A DNA stretch of 64,000 bases from Terracidiphilus sp. (GTDB taxonomy: Bacteria > Acidobacteriota > Terriglobia > Terriglobales > Acidobacteriaceae): positions 73,521-137,520 of the forward strand of contig DASZRJ010000015.1 in NCBI GenBank assembly GCA_035550015.1, in the 5' to 3' direction. Position 1 is the first letter of the stretch, and each line of letters opens with the position of its first letter. Below the pieces are notes generated by a model that searched no databases, had not been told where the DNA came from, and saw only the letters and a list, made by a program, of their open reading frames with translations. Shown here one piece after another: positions 59,003 to 64,000 of this stretch. A program made the translations under genes and the position numbers.

Positions 59003-59980
59003 TCAGGCTGTTGACGATGCCATCCGCTTCAGCCCTTCTTCCGCCAGCTCCGCCACTGCGTGCGCCAGCATTGGAGATGCATTCAACGATTCCGGCCTCT
59101 CCAGCCGCAGCCCCAACCTCTTCGCGTGTTCTTTGAAGGCGATATCTACGTCGTACAAAATCTCCACGTGATCGCAGAGAAATCCGATCGGCTGCAGCAC
59201 AACCGTTTTCACGCCCTCGGTTGCAATCTTCTCCAGTGTTTCTTCCACTGTGGGCCCAATCCACGGCCCCCCGCTCGCACCCTGGCTTTGGAACGCAAAC
59301 CACCACTTCGGAATCTCCGGCACACGCTCTGCCACCAGAGCCGCAGTCGTGCGCGCATCTTCCGCATAAGGGTCGGGTCCTTGTCCGGCAGGCCAGTGCC
59401 GCGGCGCGCCTGTCTCTCCAGCTGCGGGCGGCTCCACCGTCCTGGTCGGCACAGAATGTGCCGTAAACAATACCGGAGGAATATCCCCTGTCTCTGCCTT
59501 CACCTCACCCAGCTTCGCCCGCAGGCGCTCTGCAAACGCATCGGCCAGCAGCCCATTCCGCGCCCACCCTTCGGTGAAATCGAATTTCAACGTTCCGGCT
59601 TCTGCTTCCACCGCGCGTTTGTAAAGCCCCACGCTCGTGCGAGAATTCTGCGGAGCCAGGCAAATTACCGCCGCCTCTTCCACGCCATCGGCACGCATCT
59701 GCTTCACCACATCGGGAATATAGGGCCGCCAGTTGCGCATACCCACATACACCTTCACAGCCGCACCCTTCGCGGCCAACTCGGCCTCCACAAGCCGCGC
59801 ATGTTCCATCGTCAGCTCGGTCAGCGGGCTCCGCCCAATCAGCCCATACCGGTGCTGAATCTCTTCCACCACATGTTGCGGCATCGGCCGCCCGCTCACC
59901 ACATTGCGCAAATATTCCGGAATCTGCTCCACCGTCTCCGGCGTTCCATGCGCCAGCAACAGCACTGCCCGCTTCCCCAT
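59003..59980 (-). CDS. hemH: Ferrochelatase (coproporphyrin-ferrochelatase-like sequence)
   Basis: LLAHGTP, RYGLIGRSPL, FTAHSVP, FQSQG, WIGP, GFLCDHVEILYDVD. Confidence 0.93.
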   Translation of the reverse strand: MGKRAVLLLAHGTPETVEQIPEYLRNVVSGRPMPQHVVEEIQHRYGLIGRSPLTELTMEHARLVEAELAAKGAAVKVYVGMRNWRPYIPDVVKQMRADGVEEAAVICLAPQNSRTSVGLYKRAVEAEAGTLKFDFTEGWARNGLLADAFAERLRAKLGEVKAETGDIPPVLFTAHSVPTRTVEPPAAGETGAPRHWPAGQGPDPYAEDARTTAALVAERVPEIPKWWFAFQSQGASGGPWIGPTVEETLEKIATEGVKTVVLQPIGFLCDHVEILYDVDIAFKEHAKRLGLRLERPESLNASPMLAHAVAELAEEGLKRMASSTA

Positions 59981-60038
59981 CGCTACCCTTTCTCAATCAC
60001 CGCGGCAGAATCAGTCTCAAGCGTCTGTTGTGCCACAT

Positions 60039-60073
60039 CCACTGAACACTGATCACTGACCTCTGATCACTGT
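60039..60073 (+). repeat. Five tandem imperfect heptamers (NCACTGA) over the hemE stop
   Basis: CCACTGA ACACTGA TCACTGA CCTCTGA TCACTGT. Confidence 0.8.
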
Positions 60074-61137
60074 TCAAGCCGAAAGGCTTGAACCATCTTC
60101 GCCACCGCTTGCACATGCTCCACCGGCGTGCCCGGCACAATTCCATGCCCAAGGTTGAAGATGTGTCCCGGCCGTCCATTCGCCGCGCGCAGAATCTCCT
60201 TCACCCGCTGCTCCAGAATCTCCAGCGGCGCAAACAGAGTAATCGGATCCAGGTTGCCCTGCACCGCATGATGCTCGCCTACCGCGCGCCAGCCTTCGTC
60301 CAGTGGCTGCCGCCAATCCAGGCCGATCACGTCCGCGCCCGTCTCGGCCATCTGCGTCAGCAGACCCGCCGTCTCCACGCCGAAATAGATCACCGGCACG
60401 CCCATCTCCTGCACTGCGCGTACCAGTCGTTTCGACGCTTCAAACGCATAATCGCGATAATCCGTCAGGCTCAGCGCACCCACCCACGAGTCGAAAATCT
60501 GAATCACATCCGCGCCTGCCTGCACCTGCTGGCGGCAATACTCCGTCAGCACGGTAACAATCTTTTCCAACAGGCCATTCCATGCCGCGGTGTTCTGATA
60601 CATCAGCTTTTTCGTCTCGATGTAATTCCGAGAGCCGCCGCCCTCGATCATGTAGCTTGCCAGCGTAAACGGCGCGCCGCAAAATCCTATGATGCCCAGC
60701 CTGTCGCGAAAGTGCGCTGCTACCTTCTCGATCGCGCGCGCCACGTAGCCAAGTTCCGCCGCACGATCCGTGCGTAGCGCGAGTACGTCTTCAGCCGTTC
60801 GCACCGGCCTGTGTACCACCGGCCCCTCGCCTGCCTGGAACTCAAAGTCCAGTCCCATCGGTTCCAGCGGCAATAACAGATCGGCAAAGATAATCGCCGC
60901 ATCCACGCCCAGCTTCTCTGCCGCGGTAATCGTAACCTCGGCCGCCAGCTCAGGCTGCTTGCAGATTTCCACCAGCGTATGGTGCTTGCGCACATCGCGA
61001 TACTCCTGCATGTACCGCCCCGCCTGCCGCAAAAACCACACCGGCGTGCGATCTACAGGCTTGCGCAAGCACGCCCTCACGAAGCGCGTTCCACTCAGCA
61101 CCGAGTCCTCGGCGCTGTCCGTCACAATCGAACTCAT
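60067..61137 (-). CDS. hemE: Uroporphyrinogen decarboxylase
   Basis: PVWFLRQAGRY, AAIIFADLL, IGFCGAPFTLASY, QIFDSW, QGNLDP, FNLGHG. Confidence 0.97.
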   Translation of the reverse strand: MSSIVTDSAEDSVLSGTRFVRACLRKPVDRTPVWFLRQAGRYMQEYRDVRKHHTLVEICKQPELAAEVTITAAEKLGVDAAIIFADLLLPLEPMGLDFEFQAGEGPVVHRPVRTAEDVLALRTDRAAELGYVARAIEKVAAHFRDRLGIIGFCGAPFTLASYMIEGGGSRNYIETKKLMYQNTAAWNGLLEKIVTVLTEYCRQQVQAGADVIQIFDSWVGALSLTDYRDYAFEASKRLVRAVQEMGVPVIYFGVETAGLLTQMAETGADVIGLDWRQPLDEGWRAVGEHHAVQGNLDPITLFAPLEILEQRVKEILRAANGRPGHIFNLGHGIVPGTPVEHVQAVAKMVQAFRLEQ

Positions 61138-61277
61138 ATACACACAATTTTACCGGCTCGTGTGGCACAAGATGTGTTTCCAGTGATATGGCTTTGCATT
61201 TCACGGGAACCGCCGCCCTGTGTTGTTCGTATCATGCATTAACCCGAACTCTGTCCGTCCATTCCCGAGAGGTTCCC

Positions 61278-61976
61278 ATGCACTACCCTTCGCATGATCC
61301 TTTGTGGATGCACGCTCTTCTTGCCCTTCACGTGACAGCCGGAGCCGCCGCCTTCGTCTTCGCCCCCATAGCCCTCGTTACGGCCAAAGGCAGCCGCGCG
61401 CATCGCCGTTGGGGTGGCTTTTATTTCTGGTGCATGATGATTGTTGCTGCCACTGCGCTCGTCATGGCCCTCTGGCGGCCCATCCTCTTCCTTGCACTCA
61501 TCGCCGTCTTTAGCGCCTACACGGCCTTTGCAGCCCGTCGAGTACTCGCGCAAAAGGCTGCGGCATACGGCAAGCCCGTCACAAAACCCATTGACTGGGT
61601 CGCCGCCGCGCTCTGCATGGCCGCAGGAGCAGCACTCGTCGTGCTCGGCTTCTTCCGCCCTCAGCTCGTCAGTAACCTGCGCATCCCGGCCGTCATTTTC
61701 GGTCTCGTCGCCATGCGCATCGCCGCGCGTTCCATCCAGCGCTTTCTCTATCCGCCTGCCGACAAAATGTTCTGGTGGTACGCCCATCTGCAGGGCATGA
61801 TCGGCAGCTACCTCGCCGCATGGACCGCCTTCACTCTCGTCACCATCGGCCCGCTGCTCCCCGGAGCCTGGTGGCTTTGGCTCGTCCCCATCTCCGTCGG
61901 CATCCCAGCCATCATCGCAACAACCGCGTATTATCAGCGCAAGTTCAACGCGCGCACCACGGCGGCCGTCAGCTAG
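61278..61976 (+). CDS. DUF2306-like membrane protein
   Basis: LHVTAG...KGSRAHRRWG, WWYAHLQGMIGSY, 6-7 TM; RBS GAGG before ATG 61278. Confidence 0.75.
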   Translation: MHYPSHDPLWMHALLALHVTAGAAAFVFAPIALVTAKGSRAHRRWGGFYFWCMMIVAATALVMALWRPILFLALIAVFSAYTAFAARRVLAQKAAAYGKPVTKPIDWVAAALCMAAGAALVVLGFFRPQLVSNLRIPAVIFGLVAMRIAARSIQRFLYPPADKMFWWYAHLQGMIGSYLAAWTAFTLVTIGPLLPGAWWLWLVPISVGIPAIIATTAYYQRKFNARTTAAVS

Positions 61977-62175
61977 ATAGCCGCGCCCAGCCTTGCACAA
62001 AGCGCAGCGGCAGCATACTCAGCCACAAATTGCACGTCCATCAATGGTTTTCTGCCTTCAGTACTAACTCATACCACTTGCGCCTCTCTCCTCATGTGCA
62101 ATCCGCCGCGAAAATCTGTATCGTATCTACTGAGTTCCGTAACACAACGCGAGGCAATGCCGCACACTGTTCACT

Positions 62176-62206
62176 TGGATGAAGGAATCATTCTGCACTT
62201 CATCCA
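62176..62206. promoter_or_regulatory. 9-bp inverted repeat upstream of the DUF2946-like uORF
   Basis: TGGATGAAG-N13-CTTCATCCA, with an inner GAAT-C-ATTC. Confidence 0.45.
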
Positions 62207-62209
62207 CAG

Positions 62210-62716
62210 ATGCAGCCGCCAAGCTTCCCCTCGCAAACCACAAACAGGAGCATTCACGCACCGGTGACATTTTGGCCACGATGGACGCACGCGCTGGCTC
62301 CTTCCCGCTGGAAGTGGCTGAACACAGACGTCTGTGCGCATGCGCTGCTCAGCCTGTTTCTGGTTCTGCCCATGCTGTCTCCGCTCCTCGTCTTCCCCTC
62401 GGAAACCGGCATGCAGACCGCCTGCTGCTGCAAGAGCGACAGTGAATGCCACTGTCCCCTCTGCAAAATGCACAAGCACGCACATCCGCAATCCGGCCAA
62501 ACCGTTTTCTCCGCGCCGGGGTCGAAATGCCCGTGCTGCCCATCCCAGTTGCCCGGTCAACTGTCCATCCAGTTCACTCTTGGCTCGGTAAATCCAGTCG
62601 TTGCCGGCCTGATCGCGCATCCCGCTGGCCTTCCGCAAACTGAAGCGCGCCAGCGCCTCACCAATATTCGCGTTCGCCAGAAGCGCGGACCGCCCTCTCT
62701 CCTCATCGCAAGCTAG
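62210..62716 (+). CDS. DUF2946/CruR-like Cys/His-rich leader protein with C-terminal RGPP (start uncertain, 62210 or GTG 62264)
   Basis: Hydrophobic N-segment, ACCCKSDSECHCPLCKMHKHAH, CPCC, RQKRGPP at 62684-62695; 84 nt upstream of a TonB-dependent receptor. Confidence 0.72.
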   Translation: MQPPSFPSQTTNRSIHAPVTFWPRWTHALAPSRWKWLNTDVCAHALLSLFLVLPMLSPLLVFPSETGMQTACCCKSDSECHCPLCKMHKHAHPQSGQTVFSAPGSKCPCCPSQLPGQLSIQFTLGSVNPVVAGLIAHPAGLPQTEARQRLTNIRVRQKRGPPSLLIAS

Positions 62717-62720
62717 GCAA

Positions 62721-62762
62721 GCACCGCGATTCACCTGGGTCTTCGCACTCAGGCGGTGGTGC
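62721..62762 (+). promoter_or_regulatory. Stem-loop between uORF and receptor
   Basis: Inner stem CCTGGGT-cttcgc-ACTCAGG (one G-U), outer GCACC/GGTGC, followed by GTTTATT. Confidence 0.5.
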
Positions 62763-62800
62763 GTTTATTCCCCTGCATCAACGATATAGGAGAGTCAATA

Positions 62801-64000
62801 ATGCAATTTCGCCGCGGGCTGGCAATTACCGCCCTCTGTACCGCAATCATGCTCTTATTCCCCGCCCTTGCTGCCGCCCAATCCGGCAGCGCGCAGATTC
62901 ACGGCAGCCTTACCGACCGCACTGGCGCTGTGCTCACCGGCGCAACCGTAACCGTTCGCGACGCCGCAACAGGCCAAAGCTCGAGCGTCACCACAAACTC
63001 CACTGGTAATTACTCCATCACCGGACTCGCGCCAGGCCGTTATACCCTTCGCGTTAACCAGAGCGGCTTCTCGCAGCTCGTCACCACCGTCCGCCTCCGC
63101 GCCGGCCAGGATCTCGACGAGCCTCTCGTACTCGGTCTCGCCTCCGTTGTGCAGCAGGTCACCGTCTCCAGCGGGCCCACAGACGACGGCCTCACTTCGA
63201 AGACCATCCGCGAAGGCGGCGCGCGTGATCTCGGTGAAGCCACATCGAATCTCGCCGGCGTTGACATGGTCCGCAAAGCCGCCGTCGCCAATGACATCGC
63301 CATCCGCGGCATGTTCCACAGCAACATCGCCATGAGCTTTGACGGCGAGCGCATGTACGGCGCCTGCACCAGTCAGATGGACCCCGCTGCCTATCACGTC
63401 GATCTCTCCGAAGTCGATCACGTCGACGTCGTCAAGGGGCCTTTCGATGTCACCACCCAGGGCTCCATGGGCGGCTATGTCAAAGTCATCACCAAAACGC
63501 CTGACGCCAGCGGCTTCCTGCTTCGCACCAACGTCTCCACCGGCTCTTACGGTTACTACAACCCCTCAGGCACACTGCAAATCGGCGGAGACAACCTCCA
63601 TTCGCTCTTCGGCTACTCGTATCGCACCTCCGAGTTCTACCGCGATGGCGATGGCAATAACGTCGCCAGCCTTGCCTCTTATCGAAACGGCAATGAGAAC
63701 CTGCAGGCCTTTCGCACGCAAAGCATATGGACCAAACTCGCCTTCCAGCCCACCGCCAACCAGCGCGGAGAAATTGCCTACACCCGCCAGCAGAGCGGCG
63801 AAGTGCTCTATCCCTACATGATGATGGACGGCATCTTCGACAATGGCGATCGCTTCGATCTGCGCTACGACATCCTCAAGCCGCACGGCTGGGTCAATGC
63901 CGCCCATGGCCAGGCCTACCTCGACAAGGTCAACCACCTCATGGACAATCGCCTTCGCGCCAGCGCCGGTTCGCTTCCCAATTCCATGAGCGCGCAAGTG
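62801..64000 (+). CDS. TonB-dependent receptor, OprC/NosA-like copper transporter, 3'-truncated (not in ORF track)
   Basis: RBS AGGAGAG, ATG 62801, signal peptide, carboxypeptidase-regulatory-like domain (GSLTDRTGAVLTGATVTV), plug (IRG, VKGPFD), CTSQMD (Cys189, Met193) and HLMDN (His379, Met381); frame open to the window end. Confidence 0.88.
   Translation, partial: MQFRRGLAITALCTAIMLLFPALAAAQSGSAQIHGSLTDRTGAVLTGATVTVRDAATGQSSSVTTNSTGNYSITGLAPGRYTLRVNQSGFSQLVTTVRLRAGQDLDEPLVLGLASVVQQVTVSSGPTDDGLTSKTIREGGARDLGEATSNLAGVDMVRKAAVANDIAIRGMFHSNIAMSFDGERMYGACTSQMDPAAYHVDLSEVDHVDVVKGPFDVTTQGSMGGYVKVITKTPDASGFLLRTNVSTGSYGYYNPSGTLQIGGDNLHSLFGYSYRTSEFYRDGDGNNVASLASYRNGNENLQAFRTQSIWTKLAFQPTANQRGEIAYTRQQSGEVLYPYMMMDGIFDNGDRFDLRYDILKPHGWVNAAHGQAYLDKVNHLMDNRLRASAGSLPNSMSAQV

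Follow-up and report, generated by a model that had tools for sequence, protein, structure and literature searches.

The gene that starts at position 62801 and runs off the end of the window (the whole stretch of 64,000 nucleotides that was analysed, C15:73521-137520 of a 4.76-Mb genome in 64 contigs from a soil bacterium of the Acidobacteriaceae) most probably encodes a TonB-dependent outer-membrane transporter of the OprC/NosA family for the uptake of ionic copper, a reading to which we give a probability of roughly 0.8. Judged from its sequence, the protein is a distant and architecturally extended member of this family and not a curated orthologue, and it shares with OprC (PA3790, Pseudomonas aeruginosa) and NosA (P. 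stutzeri) the arrangement of a plug and a 22-strand barrel. To our knowledge, outer-membrane uptake of ionic copper has been structurally characterised for OprC alone. Sequence comparison indicates that the OprC-type four-residue site, and also its pairing with a CruR-type leader, reaches into the Acidobacteriota, a phylum that is abundant in soil and genetically hard to study. No report of OprC-type copper uptake in Acidobacteriota was found in the literature searched, and OprC, unlike the receptor described here, has been described from Proteobacteria (PMC8610252). The finding adds a member to the known OprC family and no new mechanism or principle; the gene and its relatives provide a concrete, testable handle on acidobacterial copper acquisition, together with natural variants for structure-function work, namely Cys-to-Gly forms, richer methionine loops and an added N-terminal domain.

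The whole receptor gene was located on the genome contig at C15:136321-138666 (L001:322-2667), where it encodes a product of 781 amino acids. The first-pass annotation had described the receptor as missed by the ORF track; the frame is indeed unlisted, because it runs off the window edge, and this is no more than an edge effect, an open-ended ORF listing giving the frame from 62756 and leaving it 3'-open at the edge. The ATG at 62801 was preferred as the start over the upstream in-frame GTG at 62756 because an AGGAGAG sequence lies 6 nt before it. The parts of the gene that fall inside the window are as follows.

62788-62794, plus strand: Shine-Dalgarno sequence AGGAGAG, 6 nt ahead of the ATG at 62801
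62801-64000, plus strand: OprC-type TonB-dependent receptor gene, codons 1-400 of 781, 3'-open at the window end
62801-62878, plus strand: Sec signal peptide (MQFRRGLAITALCTAIMLLFPALAAA, followed by Q), read from the sequence; helix 3-25 in the AF2 model
62894-63118, plus strand: CarboxypepD_reg N-terminal domain, residues 32-106 (Pfam, E 5e-19)
63146-63166, plus strand: TonB-box-like VVQQVTV, residues 116-122, kept in the clade consensus
63191-63475, plus strand: Plug domain, residues 131-225 (Pfam, E 3.6e-11)

The full-length protein also carries the barrel domain PF00593 (precomputed domains), and an AF2 model built from 49 homologues (pLDDT 83.6, pTM 0.80) shows the plug and 22 barrel strands. 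The segment VVQQVTV, which follows the CarboxypepD_reg domain, would be the TonB box, to judge by its resemblance to known TonB boxes.

The central evidence for the copper reading comes from four residues, which are divided between the plug and the barrel.

63365-63379, plus strand: plug half of the predicted copper site, C189-T-S-Q-M193 within GACTSQMDP (codons TGC-ACC-AGT-CAG-ATG), aligned to OprC C143...M147
63935-63943, plus strand: barrel half of the predicted copper site, H379-L-M381 (codons CAC-CTC-ATG), at the outer end of strand 7, aligned to OprC H323-I-M325

Both motifs, CTSQM and HLM, had been picked out beforehand as an OprC-type site, and both fall exactly where they had been placed and on the OprC ligand columns. 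In OprC, Cys143, Met147, His323 and Met325 are the copper ligands in the crystal structure (PMC8610252). The CxxxM plug ligands and HxM barrel ligands thus stand at homologous positions in OprC/NosA and in the window receptor, and the flanking GAC..MD and.H.MD. match as well: in the HMMER alignment GACTSQMD lies on OprC GACPNRMD and NHLMDN on OprC DHIMDN. The signal peptide aside, C189 is the only cysteine of the receptor, and its only HxM is H379-x-M381. All four residues are retained in 45 of 49 homologues, which range from 86% down to 22% identity; across the 49-sequence alignment the histidine is invariant, and the cysteine and both methionines are each more than 90% conserved. A phylum-wide genome search yielded 15 further loci, every one of which has GAC(P/T)xxMDP and xHxM(T/D/S)D with a constant Cys-to-His spacing of 188-190 residues. 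When the receptor's own genome was searched, only the window receptor, out of 56 receptor-like ORFs found through the shared N-terminal domain and plug, had a CxxxM separated by 150-230 residues from an HxM. We consider the CxxxM-HxM pair to be above chance because of its column-for-column alignment with the OprC ligands, its deep conservation and its occurrence in 1 of these 56 ORFs. From the TM of 0.86 between the model and Cu-bound OprC and from the identical alignment columns, the four side chains are predicted to meet around a single metal.

The exceptions to this conservation are few. One long-branch homologue is without both site methionines, and in a single clade (P0019, P0034 and P0037; support 100/98) the cysteine is replaced by glycine while the M/H/M residues are kept. 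The OprC cysteine is needed for high-affinity Cu(II) binding, and by analogy these three homologues may represent naturally occurring variants that have a low affinity or bind Cu(I) only.

Closeness to OprC in particular, beyond TonB-dependent receptors in general, was seen at the level of both sequence and fold. In a search of PDB sequences, OprC chains alone passed E<0.001 (E 6e-24; residues 140-776 on OprC 94-723), at an identity of about 22%. Among the NCBIfam models, TIGR01778, 'TonB-dependent copper receptor', came first (E 5.7e-56) with 190.5 bits, 70 more than the next, a score that falls far short of the equivalog cutoff of this model (472.45 bits). In Foldseek comparisons of the AF2 model against the PDB (OprC structures 6FOK, 6Z8Q etc.), the top 28 matches were all OprC chains (E 1e-55 to 1e-49; TM 0.82-0.86, normalised to OprC), followed by PhuR at 2e-41 and then by other haem, Zn and siderophore receptors, so that 14 orders of magnitude separate OprC from the next receptor. 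Plug-barrel paralogues at E<1e-3 were not found in the receptor's own genome. Aligning and modelling the full gene against OprC, which had been proposed as the check on the copper site, thus placed the ligands of the two proteins in the same columns and OprC at the head of the fold matches.

These comparisons bear directly on whether the protein is instead an ordinary TonB-dependent receptor whose substrate is organic (haem, a siderophore or a glycan) and in which the C/M/H/M residues are structural or coincidental. The secondary NCBIfam matches are the haem-receptor models TIGR01785/01786, the genes hemH (ferrochelatase) and hemE (uroporphyrinogen decarboxylase) are found upstream (window 59003-61143, minus strand), and some sources name the homologues 'iron complex outer membrane receptor'. 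However, the haem receptors trail by 70 bits in sequence score and by 14 orders of magnitude in fold match, the haem genes are encoded on the other strand with another gene in between, the 'iron' names are generic pipeline labels, and four residues at fixed spacing across the phylum and into Proteobacteria are not a coincidence. We therefore regard an organic substrate as very improbable.

Besides the four ligands, the first-pass annotation had pointed to additional methionines (GMFH, AMSF and YMMMDG) and had cited the methionine track of OprC. The coordinates of all three motifs hold; as a track, only M342 of YMMMDG stood up, and the two plug methionines did not.

63308-63319, plus strand: GMFH, with plug residue M171
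63329-63340, plus strand: AMSF, with plug residue M178
63815-63832, plus strand: YMMMDG of loop L3, with M342, which aligns to OprC Met286
63977-63988, plus strand: PNSM, with M396, which aligns to OprC Met343

Plug methionines are weakly conserved, M171 being present in 10 and M178 in 5 of 33 close homologues. M342, in contrast, is invariant in 49/49 sequences (the other methionines of YMMMDG are not), and M396, which was added to the track here, is kept in 33/33 close homologues. In the OprC crystal Met286 and Met343 are Ag(I) ligands, Met286 being a ligand of the Ag(I)/Cu(I) track and Met343 common to both Ag sites (PMC8610252). Equivalents of these two extracellular methionines are thus shared between the proteins, while the OprC track residues Met339 and Met341 are without counterpart in the receptor, where the aligned residues are L and N. 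Overall methionine content is 3.5%, compared to a paralogue median of 1.3% among the 56 receptor-like ORFs. When the 28 methionines of the receptor were mapped onto the strand topology of the AF2 model, all 20 that lie in the barrel were found in extracellular loops or in the outer half of strands: 20 of 338 outer-half or loop positions are methionine, against 0 of 206 periplasmic-half or turn positions (Fisher p 5.9e-5). Clade-specific clusters occur at the L5 hairpin tip (YMIMTMMGMPMQM, mostly conserved) and in L7 and L8, all beyond the window end, and are far more elaborate than the aligned OprC segments.

The same richness of L5, L7 and L8 is one of the points that would fit an OprC-family receptor with a different substrate, either a thiophilic metal other than copper (Ag, Zn, Cd, Ni) or chelated copper in a complex of the chalkophore type. 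The identity of about 22% to OprC and the score under the equivalog cutoff point the same way, as does the metal-ion transporter ZnuD (Neisseria meningitidis, PDB 4RDR/4RDT), whose buried Zn site in the barrel almost coincides with the OprC copper site (PMC8610252). Against this, the ZnuD match is far below those to OprC (fold match E 8e-38), and the four ligands of the window receptor are chemically identical to those of OprC, unlike the His/Asp/Glu set of a Zn site; ZnuD itself has Zn ligands in place of Cys/Met. A Cys/His/2Met set is typical of copper proteins (PMC8610252), two of the track methionines correspond by homology to residues that bind Ag(I)/Cu(I) in OprC, and no chalkophore biosynthesis genes were found among the neighbours. 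Such a site could also take Ag, and possibly other soft metals, and we consider it unlikely that one of these, or a copper chelate, is the substrate. From the established family relationship and the conserved ligands we infer that the receptor binds and transports copper.

With respect to architecture, the receptor differs from OprC in the CarboxypepD_reg domain ahead of the TonB box, as had been noted from the translated sequence, although this domain proved to be standard among the receptors of the genome. Among the homologues, the Pfam CarboxypepD_reg match is confined to 37 that form one clade (support 99/98), which implies a single acquisition in an OprC-like lineage. Because the module is common to the 56 receptor-like ORFs of the genome, which were themselves found through it, we take it to be the usual N-terminal extension of the lineage and not a copper adaptation. 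Unlike OprC, the receptor also continues beyond its terminal Phe with a charged tail of 5 residues. Residues after the terminal aromatic residue are unusual for an outer-membrane beta-signal. Such a tail, usually of 5 amino acids (e.g. GSGEE, GRGAR), was present in 34 of 34 close homologues, whereas 15 of 15 distant homologues stop at the C-terminal aromatic residue (alignment A1). In the genome itself, the short, mostly charged tail occupies C15:138649-138666, beyond the window. Selenocysteine was considered in this connection, since most homologues of 36-38% identity had been flagged with one internal TGA in the phylum search and NCBIfam lists receptors with Sec motifs. Re-translation ruled this out, the TGA being the regular stop codon that directly follows the C-terminal aromatic residue, and it had been counted as internal because the query receptor carries the extra 5-residue tail.

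The tail and a patchy distribution could suggest that the receptor gene is a decaying or inactive remnant. The gene was found in 8 of 151 genomes of the family and 24 of 301 genomes of the phylum (~8%), it was absent from the three further genomes searched within the genus, and one OprC-type homologue, L011, has an internal stop. Yet the 781-codon frame is intact, with a ribosome-binding site, signal peptide and TonB box, the AF2 model is confident, and the protein is 86% identical to an intact orthologue that has the same leader and spacer; the tail, being present in all 34 close homologues, is evidently tolerated. That the gene is a remnant is thus hardly credible. The link to an acidic-soil lineage suggested in the first-pass annotation is conjectural, and it has to be set beside the same patchy occurrence. 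The L011 homologue (G089:C16:104576-106621) has its TAA at codon 300 of the match and is possibly a pseudogene or an assembly error.

Upstream of the receptor gene is a gap of 825 bp, and within it we identified an unannotated leader ORF followed by a hairpin.

62264-62716, plus strand: unannotated leader ORF, 150 amino acids from the GTG at 62264, identified by protein-level conservation
62684-62695, plus strand: codons for RGPP in the leader, a predicted core of ribosome arrest from alignment to the arrest motif
62721-62769, plus strand: GC-rich hairpin followed by GTTTATT, beginning 5 nt past the leader stop

A conserved AGGAGC stands 18 nt upstream of the GTG, and the protein encoded in the plus-strand frame is conserved between the window, L002, L003 and L007, with a spacer between leader and receptor of 81-99 nt; in eight leader loci with known gene coordinates the gap from the leader to the downstream gene is 52-108 nt. 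Two other reading frames were rejected as unconserved at the protein level: a minus-strand ORF (62171-62734) that overlaps the conserved plus frame, and a 201-amino-acid minus-strand gene that the gene caller placed over the leader in L003/L004. The leader is laid out as a signal/TM segment, CCC...CHCPLC, CPCCP, 48 residues, QKRGPP, 6 residues and the stop. In four copies at 24-78% identity, CPC and QKRGPP are invariant and the interval between them is ungapped, and K, R, G, P and P are invariant across 58 sequences of the leader family, which comprises at least 158 clusters, every one of them labelled hypothetical.

This leader resembles CruR (Bp2923, the leader of the bfrG operon in Bordetella pertussis), a DUF2946 protein in which a nascent CXXC senses copper, relieves an arrest at RAPP and shuts off the downstream TonB-dependent receptor (PMC9426467). 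Like CruR, it is a small exported ORF that stands first in its operon, 80-100 nt ahead of a co-directional TonB-dependent receptor gene, and has a Cys motif whose distance to the RAPP-like core at the C-terminus is fixed. The two differ in the core (RGPP versus RAPP), in the spacing (48 versus 45 residues) and in the cysteines, the window leader having CPC(C) and an extra CC(C)..H.C cluster where CruR has a single CXXC. Experimentally, RGPP is the strongest RAPP-like arrest core, and small secreted proteins encoded upstream of TonB-related genes are enriched in it at their C-terminus (PMC12992588). The window copy went unseen by Pfam, with no match to DUF2946 (PF11162) even at E<=10 and empty Pfam and NCBIfam searches, whereas DUF2946 was matched by 26 of the 58 leader-family members (which matched nothing else of note), two of them above the PF11162 gathering score and collinear with the profile to position 117/117, where RGPP falls on RAPP. 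By sequence homology, then, the window leader is a divergent relative of CruR/DUF2946. Since P. aeruginosa oprC is likewise preceded by a cruR homologue (PMC9426467), a leader ORF of the cruR type precedes both oprC and the window receptor gene. Taken with the OprC-specific sequence and fold similarity, the homologous and conserved ligands and the polarity of the barrel methionines, this CruR-like leader supports the proposal of an OprC-type copper site.

As to the hairpin, structurally equivalent hairpins of differing sequence were found at L002:5917-6000, L003:5920-6000 and L007:1402-1500; an equivalent was not found at L019 or L021. The folding energy by itself is not significant (z -1.5 to -1.9). 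Recurrence with different sequences suggests a possible intrinsic terminator, statistically not a strong case, and the U-rich tail after the leader stop suggests that such a terminator acts instead of, or alongside, the Rho of the CruR system. The C>G bubble expected of a Rho site was not taken as evidence for one: C-G does peak, at +14 to +21, at the 3' end of the leader in each of the four loci, but the receptor gene is just as rich in C here, and the skew is not distinctive in this genome.

Based on these features, a working model can be outlined. Cu(I)/Cu(II) would be caught extracellularly by the Met-rich funnel of loops L3, L4, L5, L7 and L8 and passed to the buried tetrahedral site formed by Cys189 and Met193 of the plug and His379 and Met381 of the barrel; TonB would then engage the box behind CarboxypepD_reg and remodel the plug, and copper would be released to the periplasm. 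The CruR-like leader probably couples receptor expression to copper supply, and from its homology we infer both the direction and the mechanism of this regulation; a search for RNA-seq runs found none. While a ribosome is stalled at RGPP, the hairpin/terminator region further downstream would be unable to act, and binding of metal by the Cys motifs of the nascent leader would relieve the arrest, so that the receptor is switched off. We put forward only tentatively, and with some doubt, the broader idea that the leader, hairpin and receptor together make up an acidobacterial switch for copper uptake, with RGPP arrest acting on an intrinsic terminator and not on a Rho site, and that the leader family has radiated across the Acidobacteriota to receptors without the copper site, some of its members perhaps sensing other metals or thiol-reactive signals.

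The distribution of the leader shows that it does not always accompany the copper site. It is present at 6 of the 18 OprC-type loci examined (the window, L002, L003, L007, L008 and L010) and absent at L006 and L009. At L021 a leader-family member precedes a receptor that has the copper site, and the family also precedes receptors without CxxxM-HxM (L018:5001-7811, L019:5001-8199 and L020:5001-9788). The leader is thus no proof of copper specificity, because its family heads varied receptors, a point that also fits an OprC-family receptor with another substrate. Among the L018-L020 loci, one operon combines two receptors with a BNR-repeat protein; a second adjoins a CDF cation-efflux gene.

The genomic surroundings of the receptor are otherwise unremarkable with respect to copper. 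No copper genes were found among the neighbours, which speaks against the copper reading, and, in contrast to oprC, the receptor gene has no PepSY_TM or other partner gene downstream, where an aldo/keto reductase, a Zn-dependent dehydrogenase, an AraC regulator and a MacB-type permease are encoded. Cuproenzymes are encoded elsewhere in the genome, with two COX2 genes and one for a multicopper oxidase, and the ordinary copper demand that follows from them favours the copper reading. Between the leader and the haem genes is a gene for a 262-amino-acid polytopic membrane protein with weak similarity to DUF2306 (window 61188-61976, plus strand), with hemH and hemE lying upstream of it, and L002 retains the hemH/hemE synteny.
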